A stretch of DNA of 64,000 nucleotides, taken from Podarcis erhardii (lineage: Eukaryota). Under the pieces are notes generated by a model, which was given only the letters and a program-made list of their open reading frames with translations, had not been told where the DNA came from and searched no databases. Location: the NCBI GenBank assembly GCA_964252035.1, contig OZ176209.1. One strand, 5' to 3'. Positions 1,089-55,564 of this stretch are shown here, in pieces. How positions within the stretch are numbered: position 1 is the first letter of the stretch; the number at the start of each line of letters is the position of its first letter. The position numbers and the translations under genes are program-made.

Positions 1089-3269
1089 TAATCAGAGCCC
1101 AAACTCTAGGGTGGCTAGATGTTCTTCATTTCAGAAACATCCAGAACATCTTTTCAACTTCATCAATAATACTTTATTTTAAATGCTTTCATAACATCAC
1201 TTAAAAATTCTAAGCTGTGCTTATGACACAGGCAGATGTCTGCATGGCACGGACACCCCACTGATATTTTGCTGCAGTTAACTTCACATCAGCAAACATG
1301 AGCTTGCAGGATCTTCATTGGTGCTTGTGATCTTCAACAGACGTCTCTTTGCAATATCTAACAAACACAATGGTGATGTTTTGGGTACAGCATGTGGAAA
1401 TGTGCTGCTAACCAGCAACCCTGGTGAAGTCAAGCTTCATATAAGACAGATTTCACACACTGCTGGAAGTCCACGCAATTAATCACTTTGTAATTCAGTG
1501 ACCAAATGCACCTCATCGAGTTTCACATGTAAGAGTCTTTAAACAGAGCAGCTGGTTCATATGTAAATTCATATTTGAGGTCATTGGCAGTGTTTCCATT
1601 TCTTTCTGCTGTGATAATAAGAAGCCAGAACAGCAGTGCACTCAGACTGTGGTAGATATGAAGAATTTTTGTAGATATATTAATATTATGCATCTTCATA
1701 TACAATTATATTGCAGGTTCTATTTCTTCTTCATCATAGCTAACACCCTGTGTGGACAGATCAGATGGGTCATGTATCAGACCCTTGAGATAGCATGCAA
1801 TTGTGCATGGAGAAAGAAAGAGAAAGAGAACTAAGTTTCCAGAAAGTGTCATATATGAAGGGCTACGCACTTATTGATTAGCGTAGTGATCAGCAGCAAG
1901 CCGCCACTACTTTTGAGTGGGAATGAAACACATGCTGGCCAATGTAGATCTTATATAGTGGACTGGGAGGTCTTGCACAACAAACCCACTTCTCCAAAAG
2001 AGCAGGCTTTCTTCCATAAGGAAAGTGGTAATGGAAGTGTGGGATTACATCTACAGTGACATCTAGCCTCCCCTCAAGCAAATCAGGATGAAAGCTACAA
2101 AAACAGCTCACCAGGAAGCACTCTTATTTTTACAAAACAAAACAAAAAACCACACTCAACCCCAACCTTCGAATGCACATTCTAATAGCCCTTCCTAATA
2201 GAAGGCCAGGGGAACTCTGGCTCTCCAGATCTTGCTGAGCTTCCACAGCTACAGCCTATGCTGGCTTGGGCTGATGAGTTCAATGACGTCTGAAGGTCCA
2301 CAGGTTCCCCAACTCCACCTTATTGAATGTGAGGCCATGAAACCAACACCACCTTCCTTATCAGGTGACCTCATGAGCAAATTCTGCTCCTGGTTCCCCA
2401 TAGCCTACATGCTTAAGATGTACTGAAGGTGGTCTGTCAGAGTCACCACTTGCCAAGTCTATGTGGTCTGAGTGGATGATGCAGGCAGGACCCAAGGGAT
2501 TCCCATTTCACAAGCCAAAAAGCCTAGACAGATGGACTTGAGGGAAACCCTTTCATCTTTCCAAGTGATATCTTGGCAAACACATGGACACCTCGAATTT
2601 AATTCATTTTTTTAAAATCTGCACTGACCTGCTGCATGGATATCCATATGTCTGTGTCTCCTTCACCCTCCCCTCAAGACTACATGTTTAATTAGGGACT
2701 AAACCCACAATTAAACAATTAGGGCCATGGAAGGCCTCCAGCTGACACACTGAACTGGGCCTGAACTGGACCTAGAACTGGATGGGGAAGCACACAGCCT
2801 CAATGGACAAGAAAGGATCAAGTTTAATATTGGCACAGAAAAGGAAAGGCTGCTTTCTGTCAAGTGCAGAGCTAAATCTTTTTAGTGGTTTGTTTTAACT
2901 TGCATAGCAAACTCCCTGCACATATTGAGATGTCATTCTCCTCTTGTTGGCAAAATCTCATCGACACGTTTTGTGGATGAACTTGATTGACTTTTGCACA
3001 GATGAATAGCACACATCCAGTGACTCCGCCAGTTGGCTGTCACATCACGGTATGATGCTCTCTCTCAGACTGTCCACATCTTTCTGTATCATCTTTTCTT
3101 TACTGTCACTGCATTATGAGTTAACCTCTTAGCAAAGAAAAGTGCAGTAATTTTGGATCTTTGGAATGTCTGCTGCTGCTGCAGCCTGCACCGTCCACTG
3201 CTGATAACTGTTTAGGGAGCTCTGTCTCCTAGATTTCTGTGGAACCTGAAACTGAAGTTGTATAACAAT

Positions 3270-3503
3270 AAAAAAATTCCTTCCAGTAGCACCTTAAAGA
3301 CCAACTAAGTTAGTTCTTGGTATGAGCTTTCGTGTGCATGCACACTTCTTCAGATACATTTCTTCAGGTGTATCTGAAGAAGTGTGCATGCACACGAAAG
3401 CTCATACCAAGAACTAACTTAGTTGGTCTTTAAGGTGCTACTGGAAGGAATTTTTTTATTTTGTTTTGACTATGGCAGACCAACACGGCTACCTATCTGT
3501 AAC
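3270..3503. mobile_element. Penelope-like retroelement terminal remnant, inverted (palindromic) arrangement
   Basis: Perfect 92-bp inverted arms at 3267-3358 and 3369-3460 with a 10-nt loop. 11-bp TSD tgtataacaat at 3259-3269 and 3504-3514. Contains a hammerhead core as Penelope pseudo-LTRs do; family assignment is from recall. Confidence 0.8.
3370..3407 (+). ncRNA. Minimal type-I hammerhead ribozyme motif (mirror copy on minus strand at 3320-3357)
   Basis: gtat-CTGAAGA-a-gtgtgc/at/gcacac-GAAA-gc-TC-atac: CUGANGA and GAAA cores, 6-bp stem II, palindromic AGCU stem III, CUC cleavage triplet, and gtat/atac stem I. Confidence 0.75.
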
Positions 3504-3625: not shown

Positions 3626-3980
3626 AGGTAAAGATAAAGGGACCCCTGACCATTAGGTCCAGTCATGTCCGACTCTGGGGTTGTGGCGCTCATCTCGCTT
3701 TATTGGCCGAGGGAGCCGGCGTACAGCTTCCGGGTCATTTGGCCAGCATGACTAAGCTGCTTCTAGCAAACTAGAGCAGCACATCGAAACACCGTTTACC
3801 TTCCCGCCGGAGCGGTACCTATTTATCTACTTGCACTTTGATGTGCTTTCGAACTGCTAGGTTGGCAGGAGCAGGGACCAAGCAATGGGCGCTCACCCCA
3901 TCACAGGGAATCGAACAGCTGACCTTCTGATCAGCAAGTCCTAGGCTCTGTGGTTTAACCCACAGCGCCACCTGCGTCCC
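3626..3980 (-). mobile_element. Sauria SINE, full length
   Basis: Reverse complement of the 752-1088 element; TSD gttctggta at 3617-3625 and 3986-3994. Confidence 0.92.
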
Positions 3981-19096: not shown

Positions 19097-20270
19097 TATA
19101 AATATAGGCAGAGGTCTTTGCTGCTTTCTTCGTTGCATGGGCTCACAGAAACCCTGCAAGAGCCAAGTAAAAATGCTTTCCACTAGCCATTCTGATGTTT
19201 TCCAGCAAATGCATGTTGTCTGTTTTTCCAGATCAGGTTATCAAACATTTCTGTTTGTTTTCTCTTGATAGCTATTTAATCAACCTGATCTACCCCACCA
19301 GTCCAAGGGAGAGAAAGTAAGAGGGAAAAAGCAGTGCCTTCAGCATATTCCAGAAACCCATTACTATACACTTTTTCACCACCGTCCATCACATCATCAG
19401 TGAAATATTTTTTTAAAGAAATATTAATAAATTTAGCTTCAGAGCAGCCCTATGAAATTAATTATTTTCATATATTCTTTTCTAAAAAGAAAAAAGTATA
19501 ACTCTTAAGGCACAGTAACTGGTGCAGAATCACACAAAGGATCTTAAAGTCAGAGGTAAGAAACTGCATGTTATGAAACCGTAATGATGGTTTACTCTCA
19601 GGGCCACCCGTCTGCTGATGAATGACAGTTCTGCTCTATAGGAGCTCCACTGGCAGAACCCATCTCTGCTTGCATATATTAATTTCAGAAAAGGCACCGA
19701 AGGAAATGCAAAGAAACGTCTGAGTTCTAACGAATGCAAAATTCCTAATATGAACTGAGCCAGTACTCCCTCTTCCATACATATTTGCAGTGGGTTAAGA
19801 AATAATTAATGCACAGAATATCTTGTTGGAAATTTGTTTTGCTTTTTGCATGCGTCTTACACGGATACTTGACGGCAAACAGCTACACCATCTCAAGCTC
19901 TATGGCTTTTTGTGAGATAGGAAAGGCCTTGAAACAAGACTCCCATCCAGCAAGATATAACTATAGCTTGCATTATCGTCAAGTCAATGAAATGTTTAAA
20001 GAAAACAAAAGTAAAAATGGATTTGTAAATAGCAATTCGAGATTAGAATTGGAATTGCTAAATAATAAATTTAAAATACTATCCAAAATGTATAGATTAC
20101 TATTGGAATGACATTTAAAAGATGAAGTTAAAATAGGTTATGATACATTGGGCTACAGACATAGGCCACAATATACCAATAGATGATTGGGGGAGATTAT
20201 GGAAAGAGGGAATAAACTTTACTGCCTGCAGTGCGCTAAAAGAAAATACAATGAAAATGATGTATAGATG

Positions 20271-20675
20271 TGTAATGGGATAAGGGGTTGTTTGTGCGTA
20301 AGCGCCGAACCGCTCCAAGCTGAGTAGTTGGCTAAAACTTTCCCTGACCGGGCAGCCCTTACTTCATGGCTGTCTTAATCACTGGCAGAATCCGTCAGTG
20401 GGCGTTTCCTGAATTTCTTCCAACATAAAAGCTCCTTGACAGAGAGTCTCCGCCTAGATTCCCTGCGCGACAGCTTTCTGCACAGAGTGGGCGTCCCAAG
20501 GGGAGGTCCTGAGCTCTCTCCACTGATCTCGCTGGAAGCGTCCCTGAGCCTTCCGTCTGACGCCCCCTCCTCCTCTCCTTCCTCAGTGGAAGCTCTCCCT
20601 CTTTCCCTGCTGGTTCCCTCCCCAGCGTACGGGAGCCTTGCCACCCCCCTGGGCTCCGATGGCAGTTCCCTGACA
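20271..20675 (-). mobile_element. Solo LTR 'A' (405 bp), probably Ty3/Gypsy
   Basis: TG...CA termini; 5-bp TSD agatg at 20266-20270 and 20676-20680. Orientation inferred from similarity to LTR B; superfamily is inference. Confidence 0.88.
20375..20674 (-). CDS. Putative LTR-encoded ORF fragment (99 aa, open from LTR nt 2, no start codon inside the LTR)
   Basis: VRELPSEPRG...EEGEEEGASD...TPTLCRKLSRRESRRRLSVKELLCWKKFRKRPLTDSASD*; shares a 25-aa motif with the LTR B frame. Confidence 0.5.
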   Translation of the reverse strand, partial: VRELPSEPRGVARLPYAGEGTSRERGRASTEEGEEEGASDGRLRDASSEISGESSGPPLGTPTLCRKLSRRESRRRLSVKELLCWKKFRKRPLTDSASD

Positions 20676-21398
20676 AGATGGTATATAACACCAGTAAAAC
20701 TAGCCAAAATGTATAAAACAAATAATAAATGTTGGAAATGTGAAGAAAAAGAAGGCACGTTATACCATATGTGGTGGGAATGTAAGAAAGTAAAAGACTT
20801 CTGGGAAATGATTTATAATGAAATTAAAAAAAATGTTGAAATATACATTTCCCCCCCAAAAACCAGAAACTCTTATACTTGGCATGGTAGGTTCAGAAAT
20901 CCATAACAATGATAAAAAAAAAATGTTTTTATATGTGACCACTGCAGCAAGAATATTATTAGCCCAACGTTGGAAACAAGAGGAAAAATCAACAAAAGAA
21001 GAGTGGCAAACGAAACTGATGGACTATGCCGAGCTGGCGAGACTAACAGGGAAAATCCGAAACCAGCAGGACCAAATTTTCCTATAGGACTGGAAGAAAT
21101 TTATGTTGTATTTGAAAGACAATTGTAATTATTTCACATTGCTTGTAGGGTTACAAGAAGTTTTGTAAGGAGGACTTTATAAATCATTGTGGAAAGGATT
21201 AAAAATAGATGATGTAAGAGTGGATTTAAAGCAATAAGTATAGTAATAAAATGCAAAAATAGAGAGGAATTTAGAAAACCATTAGAAGGGGGTTGAGGGA
21301 AGTCTTAGGCTGTGATAGCCAAATATTTGTTATAATGTTATTAAGTTGTTATGTTTGGAAATTTGTGCAAAAAACCAATAAAAATTATAGATTATAGG

Positions 21399-33670: not shown

Positions 33671-36387
33671 AACAGTTGAGATCTGAAGGATCCAAAGTCA
33701 CTCCAGTCCCCTGGCAGGAGGGAAAAATGTAGATGTGCTTCTGAGCATGTCTAATTCCATGAGAACAACAGCCTCAAAAAGAATTAAAACCAGGAAATGG
33801 ATGGAGGAATACAAGAGCATTCTTTCACCCTGACTTCTGCCCTGCCAACTTGAGTCTGGCAGAGCTTCGGCTATTGCCTATGGTCCCCCTGCCCTTTGCT
33901 GAGAATCACAGCCTTAATGTACAACCAGGAGAGAAAGTTTGCTTGCTTGTTCCATTCTTTCCTTTCTTGCAGCAGAGTCTAAGAAGGCTTTGTTGGCTCG
34001 TCATGCTGTACAGCTGTGGGTACCCTTCTGTCAATTAGAAACCAGAAGTAATTACTATCCAGACGAGCATGCTTCAATGTTTTGCTAGTGATGTATAGAA
34101 AGCTCGCCAGTGGATCTTTTGGTCTGATACAAATTAGGTCTCTAATTAGGCTGCTGCAACAAAAGACAGGTCTCCTTCCAGCTGACCTGTTTACCAAGGC
34201 ATGGAAATTAGAGCTGCAAATGGCTAAGAAATAGCATCCTCCCATCTCCTTGATGAATTCGTAAGGCAGCAGCAGCAGCATGGCGGCTCTGCCATCTGAC
34301 ACAGCAGCCCTCTGGCTGCTTCTCCAATAGGGAAAGGTCCTATTTTGCTAGTCACATGTCCTCGCTGTCCACAGTTTTATTGCAACAACCATGGTTCTGC
34401 AATAAGAGCCTTCCTGAAAATAATGAACTCCATCCCAACAAAGTGGACTTCCTATGGTTTAAGGCAAGAGGTGGGAAATCACTCTCCTGCTGTCTGCTTT
34501 TAAATGAAGAAGGTTGCTTTGCTTTCAAGTACCAAGGCCAGCCTGTTAAGTGATCTGCACTTTTCTTTGTCTGCCCACCGAAAGATGTGCTAAATCCCTT
34601 CCCCACTCACTCCAGCTGGACAGCCTTAAATGGGACAAAGCTGCCAAGTGCCAGGGTCACTCCATCCCATATCCCCTCTAACTGAATAGCAGGGAGATGT
34701 GGCTGGGGAAACGATCCATCCCAATCAAGCCATCCCAGGATCGTCACTGTGTCATGCAGACAAATGCTAATTTGGCAGAAAGACAATGATGGCTGGTGCC
34801 CATCGAGAAGCAGAAAGCAGGGAAGTGGAGCCAGAGCCAATTACAGGTGGAGACAACTTATTCTGGTTCTGTCCCCATCTTCGTCCCTGTTGAATTCAAC
34901 AAAGGCAACACTGAGGCTAAGAAGGGGGAAACTGACAGGTGGTGCCACCCCTGGACTGAATTTATGTAGGTGGGGGCTGGCTGAAGACAGACTGAGACTG
35001 GTGGGAAAGTTCTCCAGTTGCACTAATGAACCAGTCTTCCCTGCAGATAATGAACCAATCTTTCCCTTCTCTGAAGGCACTAAACTTAGATTATGCCTTC
35101 ATAAACCACATTGAGATTGTCTTGGTATTAAGTGGTATGAAACAAACAAATAAACCTGCACTGTGAACCTTCCACTGGTGACCAACATGTGAAATCAAAT
35201 TCACCAAAATGCAGTTATCCAACCCTCCAGCCCTGTGGTGTGGAATAGCCAAAAAAGATGCTCCCTTTGTTCAGTTATGGAAACGGCCCTACAAATTCTG
35301 ATTCAGATCCCATTGGTAACTGGCTAACCCTACACTGTTGGATACATGGAGAAGGGTGGACTTGTCAATGCCACTAAACACTTCAGGGGAAGGATGGCAC
35401 AAACTTTTTGAGGGAAGCCCCCTGTTCCCTCCTGATTGGCCATGAGTTCCTGCTGCACAGCCAGAGTGTGAGTCTCCTGCCTGGGGCAAATGCTCATGTC
35501 TTATATGTCTATGGACTTACGTTGGCTTTTCTCCATGCAAGATCCTTACCAAGGACGGTTTCTGGCCCCTGGCCCTGCCTTGGCCTTTAGAGGATGCCTT
35601 GTTAAATTTTGTGGTATGATTTGCTAGAGTTGTTCAGTCAGTCATCCATTCATGTTTATTACAGTCAACAGAGCAGAGATAAAAACAAGTTATACAACCA
35701 ATGAGTTTCGTTAAGTTTGTTAGTGTGACTGGCTAGAATTGTTGCTCTTCCTGTTTCAGCTCCATTCCTCAGGATCTCTAGAAGTTAAAACATGGAGGAA
35801 GGAGTGGTTGACTCTTAACCTGAAGGAAAGATTGTGGTACCTGTGAACCTCCAGAGGTTGCTGGACTACAGTTCTCATCACACTTATACAACAGCTGTGC
35901 CGGCTGAGACTGATGGAAGTTGGAGTCCAACAACATCTGGAGAATCACAGGTTATGAGCATACTGTACCCTGTTCTACAGCATACTCATAAATACAAAGC
36001 ACCAGGTTTTGGATGGCTTGCCATTTCAAAATCTGCAGCTGTTAAAGTATATTTTGACCAGCCTTCACTAACCTGGTGCCCTCCAAAATTGTTTGGGGCT
36101 ACAACTCACATCAGCCCCAGGCAGCACCAGATGAACACCAGGATACTACTGTAGTACGTCATTGGAGTAGTGGTGGCTCAGTGCTGCTGATCAGCATTTG
36201 AGGGTAACAAAACCTGCCTCTTTTTTCATCTGTGAAATTCTTATTTCAGCAACTAATCACAGGATTTCGTATAAATTTCTTACACATTTTACATTAGTTT
36301 GGCATGCATTCAGTCATAGGCTGTTTGCACACATTTTTCCTCAAGTACATATTTTATATGCATTTGCCTCCAAATACATATTTGTGT

Positions 36388-36725
36388 GGGTGGCGCTGTG
36401 GGTTAAACCACAGAGCCTAGGACTTGCTGATCAGAAGGTCAGCAGTTTGAATCCCCACGACGGGGTGAGCTCCCGTTGCTTGGTCCCAGCTCCTGCCAAC
36501 CTAGCAGTTTGAAAGCACGTCAAAGTGCAAGTAGATAAATAGGTACCGCTCCAGCGGGAAGGTAAACAGTGTTTCCGTGCGCTGCTCTGGTTTGCCAGAA
36601 GCGGCTTAGTCATGCTGGCAACATGACCCAGAAGCTGTACGCCGGCTCCCTCGGCCAATAAAGCGAGATGAGCACTGCAACCCCAGAGTCGGCCACGACT
36701 GGACCTAATGGTTAGGGGTCCCTTT
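36388..36725 (+). mobile_element. Sauria SINE, near full length
   Basis: Matches the other copies; TSD tac(a/-)atatttgtgt-like with one mismatch (tacatatttgtgt / tacacatttgtgt). Confidence 0.92.
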
Positions 36726-39700
36726 ACACATTTGTGTATGCATTTTTCATGCAAAGTACACACTTCGTGTCCATTTTTAAAAAACTTTGTAATCAGATTG
36801 ATAGCCGTGTTCCAGTCTGCTTATACATCCAGGGCGAGCAAATTAAGTTGCTTCATTTTAAAATGCAGATCCCATTGAATTTATCCTCCCCCTATTCACA
36901 TCACATCATATTACATTTAAGCATAAAAATGCATCAATAAATTGTCACAGATGTTCTATACAAGGGCATCCCTGACAACGCACAGCTGGGAAGGGGGAGT
37001 GGCACTTAAACTGAAGTCTAAATGCTTGCATGTCCCAGGCATTGCAAGTCATAGCCAAACTGGCTACAAGCCACATGGCCTGTCAAATGGAGGAGAGTCA
37101 TGCAGAGCAGCTCAGTGTGTCACTGGAAACTGCATATGCCCTCACCCTTCTAACATGTGGGCAGGTTTTTGGCTGACACAATGTTGTCTGATCACAGCTT
37201 GCATTCTAGCTGTTAAGTCAAGAGGCTGCATCATATGTAACTGCGGGCAATAGAACAAAGAGGGTCTGCTTTTGCAGAAGCAATCTGCATTTGCTTTTTA
37301 TCACCCTCTTTCTCATGCATTGGTTGTTTGGAAACTACAGAGGGCATCAGCACAAGAGGTTCCGATTAATCTTGGAGCAGTTTAATTCTTGAGAGAGGCG
37401 GTTTACCCTTTGTTGTGCGCTTGTGTCCTCCAGTGAAATTATTAAGAGTAATGTGCAGCTCAAGGACAGCACACCCTCATCCACTCCCTTCATGTTAGTG
37501 AGATGGGCAAAAGAGATTAGGAGGAAATGGAACAAGCCTAATTGCTGGATGGTTCTGGCTAGCGCTGTGCCAAAAATTTATCTCACATTTCCCCCCCAGC
37601 CATTCTTCATCAGTGTAAGAAATTACAATGGAAAATTATCAAATGGGAGAGAAAATGTCAGTGAAAATCTTATGGTTGGGGTGCAGGTTTTTGCTTTTGT
37701 TTTACTGTACTTACCTTATGTTGGAGGAAGCTGAAGAGCCTTTTCCTGCCCTCCACACCTGATGTCATGATGTAGAAAGAGATATTGCATGACTTGCATG
37801 AATCAGATGACCCTATCCAGACCCCGATGGCAAAACTCTGCTGAATATATGCTTTTGGTTTTATTTACTTATTAAGAGATTTTTTTATAATGCCTCCCAC
37901 AACAGTCTTCAGGCACTATTGAAAACTAAAAATACAATACATCAATATAAACACAACCCAGTAAAATAAATGCAGCTGCAAATGGGTAAGAATAAAATGG
38001 GTACAGCAATAAGTTTTAAAGAGGCACAGAAATGTGAACTGTGAAAGTGCCTGCCTCGGTTTGGTGGGAAGGTAATGCCACAACGGAAAAGAAATAGCAG
38101 TATTTATGTATTTATTTAATATATTTATATACCACCTTTCAAAAGGAAAACTCTTCCCAATGAGGTTTGCAACTATATCAACATACAAAACAGTAAAATA
38201 TATTTTAACACCTATTTATCATTACTTGTTAATTAATGAGCTTCTTAGTTATTCACCCACCCCAACATTATCAATACTATCAAGCCCAGCCCTGCTCAAA
38301 AAAGGCAGCATAACACAACCATCCAAACCAAACCACAAGTATCAGAACCACAACTAGGCCACAATTAGTTTGTGATGTGCACTTTCATAGCCAGCAAACT
38401 TGCTTCATTAGCTACATGAAGTGGACTGCAGAAGCTCCCCACCCCCTTCTGCGGCTCTTCCCTATGGGATTAGAGACATTCCAATTTATGTCAAGCTGAA
38501 AAATATTATCTCGGTGCCCTCTTGCTGTCTCTTGGCTATATTCCTAACTGCAAATGCATTTCTAGCTCTTCTGCTTTCACACTGCAAATTAATACATCGC
38601 TTTGCTATGTTGCTGAGCCTGCAGCCAGATGGACGGAAATAACCACACTTAGAGAGGCGGCAATTACTCTTCTTTCTCCGAGGTCCTTGTACTAGGGCTG
38701 TTGGCTTGGAGAGGCTGTTGCCCAAGCAGTAAGGGCTATTCACCTTTGCCTTTTCTGCTGGATATACAGCAGATATATAGAAAAAACACTCCAAAAATGA
38801 CAAACTAGCTGCATTCCAGATGTGCAGAAGTTGTTAGCTAAGGAGGTGGGGCCAAGGCAGGTCCAGATGTGAATAGAATTCTGTAGCTTCAGGAAGAGGA
38901 CACACAGTCAAGCAAGAAGTACTGGCACACAGGTCCATTGTGACGGTGAAGTCTATTTTTAGGCTGCCGTCTCTCTCGCCTCCTTTCTGATAATGAGCAC
39001 ATTGTTTTGACTGATGTACAGGTTAGCCGAGATGGAGCCACGGAAGGCTTTTTGCTAAGGGTGGTGGTGGTGAAACATATCTTTGTCCTTTGCAATAATA
39101 GCAAAGAAGAAACAATGTGCAGAACACATTCTATGGACACAATCTAGCTCACATTGAGCATTTTTATTGGCCCATTGATTTCAGGGAGCTTAAGCAAACT
39201 TTTAAAAGCAGGACACCACTGGCACAGTGCCCTTATTGTCCTATAAAAGAGTAATTTGGGGGCATGCATTGTATTACAGACAAAGCAATCTGCCTTACCT
39301 TATTCCAAATATCAGCTATCAAGTGCAGATATAGGCATAGCTGGGTTAAAAGTGGCCTCAGGGTGAGGGTTCATGTGAAACAAAGAAAGGTGCCTTATCT
39401 GAGAAGGCAACTGGTCCATCTAGCTCAGTATTGACTATATTAGCCTCTGCCAACCTGGCGTTCATCAGGTGCTGACTGGGGCTGATGTGAGTTGTAGCCC
39501 AAAACAATTGAGGGTGGGACACCAGGCTAGTGAAGGCTGATTTACACTGCCTGACAGACATGGGTCTTTTCTAGCTATACCTGGAAGTGCCAGGGATTAG
39601 ATCTGGGTCATTCCTCAGATGCTCTCCCTCTGACCTATGGTCCTTCCCCAAAGGGAAGCAGTGGGTACAAGAGGGGTCTGCCATGCACCCCCTCCTGCCC

Positions 39701-45650: not shown

Positions 45651-46006
45651 AGTAAAGGTAATGGGACCCCTGACCATTAGGTCCAGTCGTGGCCGACTCT
45701 GGGGTTGCGGCGCTCATCTCGCTTTATTGGCCGAGGGAGCCAGCGTACAGCTTCCGGGTCATGTGGCCAGCATAACTAAGCCGCTTCTGGCGAACCAGAG
45801 CAGTGCACAGAAACGCCGTTTACCTTCTCGCTGGAGCGGTACCTATTTATCTACTTGCACTTTGATGTGCTTTCGAACTGCTAGGTGGGCAGGAGCAGGG
45901 ACCGAGCAACGGGAGCTCACCCAGTCGCGGGGATTCAAACCGCCGACCTTCTGAACGGCAAGTCCTAGGCTCTGTGGCTTAACCCACAGCGCCACCCGCA
46001 TCCCTT
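45651..46006 (-). mobile_element. Sauria SINE, full length
   Basis: Perfect 15-bp TSD gacctcacttagtaa at 45636-45650 and 46007-46021. Confidence 0.94.
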
Positions 46007-49422: not shown

Positions 49423-49776
49423 CTAAAGGTAAAGGGACCCCTGACCATTAGGTCCAGTCATGGCCGACTCTGGGGTTGCGGTGCTCATCTCGCTTTATTG
49501 GCCGAGGGAGCCGGCGTACAGCTTCTGGGTCATGTGGTCAGCATGACTAAGCCACTTCTGGCGAACCAGAGCAGCGCACGGAAACGCCATTTACCTTCCC
49601 GCCGGAGCGGTACCTATTTATCTACTTGCACTTTGACGTGCTTTCGAACTGCTAGGTTGGCAGGAGCAGGGACCGAGTAACGGGAGCTCACCCCGTCGTG
49701 GGGATTCGAACTGCCGACCTTCTGATCGGCAAGTCCTAGGCTCTGTGCTTTAACCCACAGCGCCACCTGGGTCCCT
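49423..49776 (-). mobile_element. Sauria SINE, full length
   Basis: TSD ggtagactag at 49413-49422 and 49778-49787. Confidence 0.93.
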
Positions 49777-50384: not shown

Positions 50385-50631
50385 CCATCTGGCCCGGGGC
50401 GGGGCCTGAAGCCCCATAAGGACTGCTGTGCTCTGCTGCCCAGGAGGACTCTCCTGTGTGGGTGTCTGAGGGCCCTGCTCCTTCCTGCCACTCACCATCT
50501 GGCCCGGGGCGGGGCCTGAAGCCCCATAAGGACTGCTGTGCTCTGCTGCCCAGGAGGACTCTCCTGTGTGTGAGTGTCTGAGGGCCCTGCTCCTTCCTGC
50601 CACTCACCATCTGGCCCAGGGCAGGGCCTGA
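50385..50631 (+). repeat. 2.2 tandem copies of a 110/112-bp GC-rich monomer (L2 5' UTR)
   Basis: Units start at 50385, 50495 and 50607 (ccatctggccc); the first two differ by about 2 nt. Confidence 0.92.
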
Positions 50632-50986
50632 CAGGCCTCACAGGGACGATTGCTGTCACTGCTGCTGCGGCCCAGGGGGATCCGGAGGGGTGCAGACTTC
50701 TTTTTAAAATGTTTTAAAATTTTCCTTTTCCTTTTTATTTCTTTATTATTATTATTATTATTGTCATTATTATTATTGTATATGCAGGGATGGGGTGGGG
50801 GTGGAATGGATGTTTAGTTGGGAATTTGTTTGATTTTGATGGATTTGTAATTTTTACAGTTTTTTATTTGTATTTTTTTTTGTTTTTTGGGGTTTCTTTT
50901 TTGTTTTGTTTTCATTGTTTTAAGGCCTTATTTTGTTCTTAAGGGGAGGGGTCAGGGCTGCCGGGGAGTGGGTCCCAGCCAACAAA

Positions 50987-53900
50987 ATGGCTGCGGCATG
51001 TTCCACAGGGGGGGATGCGTTGGGACAACCGATCTCAGTGATCTCGGGTAGGAGGAGGAGTTACGCTAAGACCAGACCATGTCATTACAGAGGAGGCAGG
51101 TTTAGTCATTGTCTGAGGACTATCCCTGCCTCCGGGTCTGGTCCTGACCAGATGGATACTAGAATCAGCAAGGGATACCCACATGACCTGAAGGTGCTGC
51201 TGTGCAATGCCAGGTCAATGATTCATAAGACCACTGCCATCCATGACCTGATCATGGATGGAGGATTTGACCAGGCATGTGTAACAGAGACTTGGTTGAA
51301 TGAAGCAGATGGGCCTGTTCTTGCCGCTGCTTGTCCACCAGGTTTCTCTTACGCACAGCAACCCAGGCCTTGTGGGCGGGGAGGGGGGGTTGCAGTGATT
51401 TTTAGGAAGTCATTAGTTTGCACCAGGCGTCCTATTGGGAAGACCCAGTTCTCTGAGTGCATGTTCTGGAAGTTGGGCAATAGGGGCAGTACAGGATTCC
51501 TATTGGTGTACCGACCTCCCCGCTGCACCAAGGATTCCCTGCCCGAGCTGCTTCAGGTCGTGGCGGATGTTCTCCTGGAGACGCCTAGTTTGGTTGTCCT
51601 AGGGGATTTTAATATCCATGCCGACACGACCTTACAAGGGGCCGCTCGGGACTTCGTGGAAAGCATGGCCTCTATGGGGCTGTCCCTGAATAAGTTTGGC
51701 CCAACCCATAGCCGCGGACATGCCTTGGACCTGGTGTTTACCTCTACGGATGTTGGTGACCTGACACTAAAAGTGAAACAAAAGAAGTGCCATGGTCAGA
51801 TCACTTCCTGGTGCAACTGGACTTCTCCGCGACCCTTCCCCTCTGCAGGGAGGTGGGACCGATTCGGATGGTCCGCCCCCACCACTTAATGGATCCAAAT
51901 GGTTTCCAGAGAGTGGTAGGGGATGCTTTATCCCATGTTGATGACCTTTCAGCTGATTCCCTGGTGGCCCGCTGGAATGTGGAGTTAACCAGGGCTATTG
52001 ACTGTTTGGCTCCGAAGCGCCCTCTCCGATCGCATGGAGCCCGGAGAGCCCCGTGGTTTTCCACGGATCTGAGGGCAATGAAACAATCGTTGAGACGGCT
52101 AGAGCGCCGGTGGCGGATAACTCATTCTGAAGCTGATCAGACACAGGTTAGAGCTCAATGTCGAGCCTACCAAGTGGCGGTAGCGACGGCGAAGAAGACT
52201 TTCTTCACCGCCTCTATTGCATCTGCAGAAAACAGCAGCAGGAGACTTTTTCAGGTGGTCCGCAATTTAGCGGAACCACCTGTGACATCGGGGCCCAGTA
52301 AGGGCCACATGATCTCCTGCAATGATTTTGCAAAGTTTTTTGCAGATAAAGTCGCTCAGATTCGGGAAGAGGTAGACGCCACCGTGGGAGCAGGGCCAGG
52401 GCGGGAGAGTGCTAGAGTCCTGTCTAGTCAAATTGCATGGGATCAATTCCAATCTGTTACCTCCGAGGATGTGGACAGGCTGCTTGGACGAGTGAAACCA
52501 ACCACCTGTCTCCTTGATCCTTGCCCATCCTGGCTTATAAAAGCTAGCCGGGTAGGACTGGGCGATGGGCTTCGTGGGGTGGTGAATGCTTCCCTCCATG
52601 AGGGAGCCTTCCCAGACCCGCTGAAAGAGGCGGTTATCAAACCACTTCTTAAAAAACCATCTTTAGATGCGGCCACGATGGCCAACTATCGCCCAGTCTC
52701 AAATCTTCCATTCTTGGGCAAGGTGATTGAGCGAGTGGTTGCTGAACAACTCCAGGCACGCCTGGAAGAAGCGGACCATTTGGATCCCTTCCAGTCGGGA
52801 TTCAGGCCTCATCATGGGACTGAAACTGCCTTGGTCGCACTGGTTGATGATCTCCGGCGGGCTAGGGACAAAGGTGAGAGCTGTTTCCTAGTTCTGCTGG
52901 ATCTCTCAGCGGCGTTTGATACCATCAACCATATCATCCTTCTGGACCGTCTTGAGGGGCTGGGAGCTGGGGGCACTGTCATTCAGTGGTTCCGCTCCTT
53001 CCTCCTGGGCCGTGTTCAGAAAGTGGTAGTGGGGGATGAGTGTTCAGACCCCTGGGCTCTCACTTGTGGGGTGCCTCAGGGTTCTGTCCTCTCCCCCATG
53101 CTTTTCAACATCTACATGCAGCCGCTGGGAGAGATCATCAGGGGGTTTGGGCTGGGTGTTCATCAGTATGCGGATGATACCCAGCTCTACCTCTCTTTCA
53201 AATCAGAACCAGTGAAGGCGGTGACGGTCCTGTGTGAGTGTCTGGAGGCGGTTGGAGGATGGATGGCGGCTAACAGATTGAGATTGAATCCTGACAAGAC
53301 AGAAGTACTGTTTCTGGGGGACAGGAGGCGGGCAGGTGTGGAGGACTCCCTGGTCCTGAATGGGGTACCTGTGCCCCTGAAGGACCAGGTGCGCAGCCTG
53401 GGAGTCATTTTGGACTCACAGCTGTCCATGGAGGCACAGGTTAAATCCGTGTCCAGGGCAGCTGTGTATCAGCTCCATCTGGTACGCAGGCTGAGACCCT
53501 ATCTGCCTGTGGACTGCCTCGCCAGAGTGGTGCATGCTCTGGTTATCTCCCGCTTGGACTACTGCAATGCACTCTATGTGGGGCTACCTTTGAAGGTGAC
53601 CCGGAAACTACAACTAATCCAGAACGCGGCAGCCAGACTGGTGACAGGGAGCGGCTGCCGAGACCATATAACACCGGTCTTGAAAGACCTACATTGGCTC
53701 CCAGTACGTTTCCGAGCACAATTCAAAGTGTTGGTGCTGACCTTTAAAGCCCTAAACGGCCTCGGTCCAGTATACCTGAAGGAGCGTCTCCACCCCCATC
53801 GTTCTACCCGGACACTGAGGTCCAGCACCGAGGGCCTTCTGGCGGTTCCCTCACTGCGAGAAGCCAAGTTACAGGGAACCAGGCAGAGGGCCTTCTCGGT

Positions 53901-54015
53901 AGTGGCGCCCTCCCTGTGGAATGCCCTCCCACCAGATGTCAAAGAGAACAACAACTACCAGACTTTTAGAAGACATCTGAAGGCAGCCCTGTTTAGGAAT
54001 GCTTTTAATGTTTGA
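50987..54015 (+). pseudogene. L2 ORF2: APE endonuclease + reverse transcriptase, one frameshift at ~51767-51770
   Basis: EN motifs CNARS, VTETWL, LGDFNIH, SDH; RT motifs YRPVSNL, QSGFRP, LDLSAAFD, GVPQGSVLSP, YADD. ATG at 50987 in aaaATGg context. ORFs 50933-51889 and 51787-54015 join by a -1 shift (..DLTL / KSETKEVPWSDH..). Confidence 0.93.
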
Positions 54016-54025
54016 TGTATCATAG

Positions 54026-54848
54026 TGTCAGAGCTGCCCGAGGTCCCAGCTCACAAAGGACCAACGCCAGTTCTTGTTATATACAAAAGTCTTTATTGAA
54101 GTTCAGTTTCCATTTCAAAGCCGCGGCGCGCAGCTCTACGTCTTGAACTCTAGACCGCTGAAGCCCGTCTGAATCTCCTCCCCCCAGACACCAGTTCAAG
54201 ACTCTAGCCTTGCTCCACCTCTTCCTCTGCTCTTTCCTCCTCTGGGTCCGCTTGTCCGCTGGGGTCTTGCCCTTTCTGGACTCTTCTGACGCTGAGTCCC
54301 CTGATTCTTCCCCCTGCCTCCGTCGGGCTTTAGGACCTGGTTCCCAATCCGGGCTTTCTGCTGTCCCGCGCGCCTGTACATTTGAACTTGGCGCGCGCGC
54401 CCAGCCGGCAACCTTTCTCCTGACCGTTACACTGCTCCTGTCACTGCTTCCCCCTTCGGGAGTGCTAGCTGGACTTGACTTCCCCTCCGTTCCCTCACTC
54501 TGCGATAGAGGCGTGGCCAGCCCTGACTCATCCTCTCTCCCTACTGGAGGAGACGCTGGCCCTGACACATGGGACTCTTCCCCCCCACTCCGCTCTGGTG
54601 GGGGAACTGGTCCTGATCTCCCGCTGCTGCTTTGGGAGTCCCCGCTGGCCCCTTGCTTCTGGTGTGTCCCCCCTGGGACCCCCCTTGCCCTGGCCATCGG
54701 CGCCCCCCTCTGGGAATCTTCTGAATCACTGGAGAAGCTCATGGAATCTCTCGGGCCACTGTCATACTCCCCTACGCTGCCCTCAGATTCCTCCCCTTCG
54801 CTCTCCGTTTCCTCTCTCCCCTGTGTCTCTGCTCCTGAGCCCCTGACA
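54026..54848 (-). mobile_element. Solo LTR 'B' (823 bp), probably Ty3/Gypsy
   Basis: tgtcag...ctgaca termini; 5-bp TSD catag at 54021-54025 and 54849-54853; minus-strand AATAAA at 54092-54097 near the 3' end. Excision restores the L2 3' UTR seen at 7530-7620. Confidence 0.92.
54077..54847 (-). CDS. Putative LTR-encoded ORF (256 codons open from LTR nt 2; first ATG at 54742 gives 221 aa)
   Basis: Acidic S/E/G-rich region, then basic TPADKRTQRRKEQRKRWSKARVLNWC. I translated 54847-54743 by hand and found no stop. Confidence 0.5.
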   Translation of the reverse strand, partial: VRGSGAETQGREETESEGEESEGSVGEYDSGPRDSMSFSSDSEDSQRGAPMARARGVPGGTHQKQGASGDSQSSSGRSGPVPPPERSGGEESHVSGPASPPVGREDESGLATPLSQSEGTEGKSSPASTPEGGSSDRSSVTVRRKVAGWARAPSSNVQARGTAESPDWEPGPKARRRQGEESGDSASEESRKGKTPADKRTQRRKEQRKRWSKARVLNWCLGGGDSDGLQRSRVQDVELRAAALKWKLNFNKDFCI

Positions 54849-55564
54849 CATAGTATTTTAATATTCTTTTGGAAGCTGCCCAGAGTGGCTGGGGAGGCCC
54901 AGCCAGATGGGCGGGGTATAAATAATAAATTATTATTATTATTATTAATGCAAAATCAGAATAAATCATCAGCAGAGGATGACAACAGTTTTAAAAAAAT
55001 GCATTTCTAAATAGCTGGGGAGCATTACTAGAGATAATTCTAAAATCACTAGAACTGAGGGTTGTCCAATGAAGCTGAATGGTGGGAGATTCAGAACTAG
55101 GGATGGGGGTACCTGTCCATTTTGGTTTCTCTCCATTTCTCATTTTTACCAATGTTAAGTTCAGTTCTCCACTTGTCCACATTAGATTGTGATTTATTTA
55201 TTTTTTTAAAAAAGTTACGATGAAAATCCATTAGTATTTCAATGCAAATTTATGCACTTTTTAAAAATGCAATTTTACATAATATCATGAATTATTGCAT
55301 GTTATTTAACCCAGTATTTGCACTTTTGTATACAAGACATGGCTAGGAAACTGCACTGCAATATTAGGAGAAGTGCAATTTTTGAAAGACGGCTGTGTTT
55401 TGGTCCATGTATTGTTTCAGATGGTGCGAATTGAGTGGCCTTGCTTTTCAAAGCAAAATGAATTGGATTTCTCCTCACCCCTATTCAGGACAGGCAAAGA
55501 AAAAGCAGTTCTTCACAAAAAGCATAGTCAAAACTGTGAAATTCGCTACCAATGATACAGTGAT

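Follow-up and report, generated by a model that had tools for sequence, protein, structure and literature searches.

The open frame on the minus strand of solo LTR A is probably the solo-LTR remnant of the last ~100 residues of the Pol polyprotein of a lizard Ty3/Gypsy chromovirus. LTR A, a 405-bp member of Gypsy chromovirus family A with TGT...ACA ends, occupies positions 20271..20675 of the window, i.e., the whole 64,000-nucleotide stretch of Podarcis erhardii DNA that was analysed. Read on the minus strand from 20675 to 20271, it starts with TGTCAGG and ends with TACA, and matching 5-bp target-site duplications adjoin it on both sides (left copy, 20266..20270; right copy, 20676..20680). The ends and the duplication confirm the solo LTR proposed in an earlier, sequence-only reading of this DNA. 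Within the window, neither a second copy of LTR A nor an internal region was found. The insertion splits a plus-strand L1/Tx1-like LINE fragment of the reverse transcriptase zinc-binding region (20676..20906, also left of 20270), whose match to Pfam zf-RVT (E 0.005) is below the curated cut-off. The two LINE flanks join directly without LTR A in contigs of all four runs, and they are contiguous in other copies of the fragment, as seen from contig joints and loose ends.

Translation bears out the frame as it had been described: from base 2 of the LTR (20674), 99 codons stay open with zero Met up to a stop at 20377-20375, so that the coding end with its stop spans 20375..20674 on the minus strand, and the peptide quoted at that time does lie at 20494-20420. 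The length of the frame by itself is modest evidence for coding. Of 5000 base shuffles of LTR A, 1.6% kept the base-2 frame free of stops over 99 codons, and 38% had a 99-codon run in at least one of the six frames; LTR A itself holds two further frames with runs of 99 and 92 codons. It is because of homology, not length, that the frame is accepted as real: it shares an amino acid identity of 64% with residues 1264-1363 of the Pol protein P0003, and its stop is common to 14 relatives. Codons 1-42 (20549..20674, minus strand) form a variable, acidic spacer whose changes in length preserve the frame, showing 29–56% identity to the 14 relatives, where the segment measures 43–58 aa. Codons 43-99 (20378..20548, minus strand) form a conserved part that becomes basic toward its end and keeps a constant 57 aa, with 68–84% identity to the same relatives and zero length changes. 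Within this part, a basic block ending in LxW (20420..20494, minus strand) is common to the sister family B described below and is weakly predicted to be helical. The remainder of the LTR downstream of the stop (20271..20374, minus strand) is the non-coding 3' end, in which single-base insertions of the relatives fall.

The origin of the frame was traced through longer proteins that contain it. The search returned two matches among 642 candidates, one of which is the Pol protein P0002. Its Pfam domains follow the order PR-RT-RH-IN-SH3-like-chromodomain; the chromodomain (PF00385, E 1.5e-7, above the cut-off) is HP1-like by sequence and fold, and the C-terminus of the protein is the LTR A frame, entered in frame at the junction ...GGEVD|VREL... 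Further relatives came from cluster look-ups and from searching with the tail. The resulting set has 22 family-A proteins in which a chromodomain is matched, mostly automated UniRef gene models, together with two from Logan contigs that have the same read-through. A tail of at least 60 aa is present in 19 of the 22, and little or no tail in the other three. All 19 tails cross the junction in frame; 14 share their stop with the window copy and five are shortened. The codons preceding the junction in family-A Pol are Gly/Glu-rich and would fit a purine-rich tract, this tract and the Pol/LTR junction being read from proteins, not DNA; full-length element DNA was found neither in the window nor in metagenome or viral contigs. 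Read from these related proteins, the Pol of full elements would almost certainly run from the chromodomain through a linker into the 3' LTR and stop there. The sequence-only reading had placed the beginning of the frame in the internal region, with its end in the U3 of the 3' LTR. The first part of this claim stands on the 19 tails, but the U3 label is positional only, because neither AATAAA nor ATTAAA occurs on the LTR A sense strand to fix the U3/R/U5 borders.

A sister family, B, shows the same arrangement at a second solo LTR of the window. LTR B (823 bp, 54026..54848, minus strand) is flanked by matching 5-bp target duplications at 54021-54025 and 54849-54853, and from its base 2 it encodes the end of a family-B Pol over 256 codons (54077..54847, minus strand), with the stop of the frame directly after an AATAAA. 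The frame shares 85% identity over 129 aa with the tail of the Pol protein P0239, which enters LTR B in frame at ...GGMD|VRG..., the D|VR junction being as in family A. The Pol order and the chromodomain of P0002 are those of Ty3/Gypsy chromoviruses, as are the TG...CA ends and the 5-bp duplications of LTR A and LTR B. Families A and B share 69% identity in RT-RH. In a tree of 40 hand-picked rows, they are sisters at 100/100 inside a 24-row clade (98/91) with rows from Anolis, Labeo, Nothobranchius, and Ranitomeya; the A/B clade stands with Anolis elements and adjoins fish and frog elements, the tree holding no named V-clade reference and leaving out the Anolis row P0069 with its short RT match. 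No Pfam family matches the LTR A or the LTR B frame, and the ESM Atlas gave no usable match for the tail of LTR A. In the window, LTR B lies a few bases from the end of a LINE (50924-54015), in which an endonuclease-like frame recognized by eye (50924-51889) overlaps, in a different frame, an RT frame of 750 codons (51760-54015; Pfam RVT_1, E 7e-37). Directly upstream of this LINE is a tandem repeat of ~110 bp with 95–98% identity (50385-50631).

The methyl-lysine cage of the chromodomain that precedes the tail is partly or wholly lost. In the register of HP1, the third cage aromatic is replaced in all 21 family-A chromodomains examined, 10 of which have a replacement of the first as well; in family B, all three are replaced in both proteins. 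Neither family thus possesses the three cage aromatics that characterize Group I chromodomains. Between the chromodomain and the LTR, all 19 family-A tails carry two [FLM]xGF motifs, and at least two such motifs occur in ~0.2% of shuffled tails. The 93 other chromodomain Pols examined have a median tail of 14 aa, and [FLM]xGF is found there only in a family-B protein. An aromatic pair followed by an 8–9 residue linker and xxGF, a pattern drawn after seeing the tails, is present in 22 of 22 tails and in none of 211 other proteins (276,704 residues), and the first motif stands in the same register in families A and B (21 of 22 tails). The exact FxGF is the second motif in 19 of 19 family-A tails and the first motif in three of three family-B tails, the other motif having L or M for F. 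The family-A linker has 8–9 residues with three to six D/E and a CK2-type site; the family-B linker is Ser/Thr-rich, with four to five S/T and zero D/E among its eight residues. In low-confidence single-sequence models, a helix is predicted at residues 111-118 for the second motif, and the first motif is not predicted to be helical. These motifs sit in the internal region of the element, outside the LTR A of the window.

The motifs resemble those by which cellular proteins contact LEDGF/HRP2, LEDGF being the chromatin protein through which HIV selects its insertion sites. The LEDGF/HRP2-binding motif is described as a short helix, an acidic linker of 8–16 residues with CK2 sites, and FxGF (PMC9987994), and the TIM consensus is given as D/ExExFxGF (PMC8022399; also PMC6877644), from which each family-A motif departs at one position at least. 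As far as these sources describe the TIM/IBM of MLL1, IWS1, JPO2, and JIL-1, the lizard tails share with them an aromatic pair of the helix type (predicted helical in the second motif only), a linker that in family A is 8–9 residues long and holds CK2-type sites, FxGF or near-FxGF, disorder, and a tandem arrangement; in contrast, the lizard motifs are located on a retrotransposon integrase, the first motif of family A has L or M for F, and the linker of family B is non-acidic. A literature search at the level of listings and abstract openings found no report of this tail, of FxGF motifs on a retrotransposon integrase, or of the cage loss in the two families.

A mechanism can be proposed from this architecture. 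The full Pol would consist of PR-RT-RH-IN-chromodomain, an acidic linker of 80–90 aa, the part encoded by a purine-rich tract, and then the 3' LTR with the stop. Genomic RNA includes the U3 of the 3' LTR, and for this reason the tail could be translated from the 3' LTR of the genomic RNA. LTR-LTR recombination leaves solo copies, and at LTR A it would have left an ATG-less fragment, so that the solo copy alone could not be expressed. We slightly favor a function in which the tail remains attached to the integrase and guides the integration complex to chromatin in the nucleus, where the LTR-encoded basic block would act as a putative nuclear-import signal or an anchor to nucleosomes or DNA. More tentatively, the internal FxGF-like motifs might bind a host TND-domain protein, e.g., LEDGF/HRP2, and the basic block and the putative TIMs together would then replace the chromodomain whose cage is partly or wholly lost. 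It is conceivable, and proposed here from sequence likeness as a speculation of similar weight, that the lizard chromovirus traded methyl-histone reading for mimicry, with putative tandem TIMs on LEDGF/HRP2 or other TND-domain elongation factors and a basic anchor directing insertion into transcribed chromatin. Lentiviral integrases bind the same LEDGF/HRP2 domain via a folded core, not a linear motif. If the proposal is true, the element would have converged on the lentiviral host tether via a linear motif of cellular type. The putative TIMs beside a decayed chromodomain offer a cheap direct test of the use of LEDGF/HRP2 by a non-retroviral element.

A less probable explanation, though one with an appreciable share, accepts that the tail is selected but takes it for a small protein cleaved off by the protease, such as an RNA chaperone or a particle component, or for a nuclear localization signal (NLS) without any choice of site. 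The predicted structure agrees with either role: the LTR A tail is disordered in AlphaFold2 (mean pLDDT 58), acidic first and basic after, with two short helices in the basic block (residues 70-73 and 79-87, pLDDT ~70–76). The yeast Ty1 integrase is also described as having a C-terminal bipartite NLS (PMC7459421). However, the lizard tail directly follows the chromodomain, the site at which targeting modules of chromoviruses are described (PMC3059260, PMC3605345), and nuclear import alone leaves the TIM-like motifs and the cage loss unexplained. Ty1 and Ty5 integrase tails are described as carrying short motifs through which a host factor is bound and the place of insertion is determined, that of Ty1 within its bipartite NLS (PMC7459421). 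These are Copia-type yeast elements with AC40 and Sir4 as partners, and the part of that source on the tails describes no overlap with the LTR (PMC7459421), in which they differ from the lizard families.

That the LTR-encoded part is maintained as protein is suggested by the variants among its copies. Of 186 variant rows, the 40 with the best support were used, and the ORF contains 24 of them. At six of the 24, nearly all other copies differ from the window copy; these probably reflect changes in that copy itself and were left out, leaving 18. In codons 44-99, eight of ten shared variants are synonymous against an expected fraction of 0.31 (p 0.002), and in codons 1-43 two of eight are, as expected without selection, the split at codon 44 having been picked after looking at the data. 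The antisense frame, which shares the wobble positions, scores almost equally (8/10 synonymous, p 0.003), and the coding direction therefore rests on the fusion with Pol. The stop of the LTR A frame varies between TAA and TGA. Among the 32 contig pieces listed, the gap lengths are 3, 6, or 12 in all five gapped pieces inside the ORF, and 1 base in the two pieces over the non-coding LTR A end; against this in-frame pattern stand two single-base insertions in the ORF, in separate contigs of run X3. Codons 1-43 look neutral. Taken as a whole, the evidence makes it likely that the protein sequence encoded by the distal 57 codons is maintained, with the spacer drifting but staying in frame. The selection that a coding reading of the entire frame implied is accordingly found in part: the C-terminal half bears signs of purifying selection, but the first 43 codons do not.

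The comparison between families points in the same direction. The DNA of LTR A and LTR B gives no alignment better than E 0.14, and the similarity of the whole ORFs is not significant, being reached by 137 of 2000 shuffles. In the basic block (20494-20420 in LTR A, 54265-54191 in LTR B), 10 of 25 amino acids are identical, a score that none of 2000 shuffles reached and that a single shuffle did in a set of 20000. Eight of the nine degenerate identical residues use different codons, and the nucleotide identity by codon position is 10, 11, and 5 of 25.

It might be supposed that Pol merely lost its stop and drifts neutrally into the LTR, the distal half being held only by promoter or RNA signals. 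The neutral evolution of codons 1-43 would be expected of such a drift, and purine-rich, GC-rich LTRs stay open easily, as the frequency of some 99-codon run in the shuffles illustrates. Moreover, the summed contig depth at 20381-20422 is far above that of the rest of LTR A in four of four runs; more abundant subfamilies probably have this stretch as well, and such a peak could lie over a shared cis element. The synonymous excess in codons 44-99, the stop-to-stop variation, and the in-frame indels nevertheless argue against it, as do residues kept on different codons between two families whose LTR DNA cannot be aligned, and we regard neutral read-through as improbable.

An independent accessory gene with its own start or a spliced message, after the manner of nef or sag, is very unlikely indeed, since its position in the 3' LTR and one predicted splice into the tail, in a single automated ATPase gene model (P0001), are opposed by the absence of ATG from LTR A, the continuity between the frame and Pol in every one of the 19 tails, and the identity of the element as a Gypsy chromovirus with no env in the proteins examined by Pfam scan. 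HIV nef and MMTV sag have coding sequence that overlaps the 3' LTR, and they are genes in their own right, each with its own start and message. The family-A frame also overlaps the 3' LTR, but it is the end of Pol and has no Met in its LTR A part. The positional analogy to nef and sag drawn in the sequence-only reading thus fails for the last ~100 residues of a Pol, which lack a start of their own and belong to a Gypsy chromovirus rather than to a retrovirus.

The LTR A frame is more properly likened to the CR motif that plant CRM elements carry. A Pol that runs into the 3' LTR is reported for group A of the plant CRM elements and for some of the Reina elements (PMC3059260, PMC3605345), and in the former, as in the lizard families, the Pol of a chromovirus entering the 3' LTR encodes a putative targeting module. 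The likeness, drawn by description, extends to the read-through of group A and not to its replacement of the chromodomain: in plant CRM, the chromodomain is replaced by the CR motif, which is located in the LTR, whereas families A and B keep a chromodomain upstream, followed by an acidic linker bearing FxGF-like motifs and by the LTR-encoded basic block. V-clade/Sushi chromoviruses have the same domain order as family A, and Pol overlaps the LTR in pufferfish V-clade1, in a passage that gives neither the length nor the function of the overlap (PMC11117352). Full-length chromoviruses are known in reptiles (PMC3670739). A Pol tail overlapping the LTR is thus already known in plant and fish chromoviruses, and the content of the tail may be what matters in the lizard elements.

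Solo LTRs of families A and B seed lizard genomes with a coding fragment that is ready to be spliced, and such fragments can enter gene models. When a profile of the motif was run against 237 proteins, only family-A proteins and P0001 scored clearly (at least 21 bits), with all others at or below 2.1 bits. P0001 (UniRef A0A670JKR6) is a Podarcis model of a phospholipid-transporting P-type ATPase whose last ~46 residues are the LTR tail. The ATPase-LTR fusion is a probable artefact of modelling or annotation, or else an exonised LTR.

Other repeats were also observed in the window. A repeat of 300–340 bp with ~90% identity, which resembles a Sauria SINE, is present in at least five copies (787-1090, 3629-3972, 36385-36727, 45653-46000, and 49424-49767). 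At 3267-3460, a perfect inverted repeat of 92 bp enclosing a loop of 10 bases is possibly the relic of a small DNA transposon or an assembly artefact.
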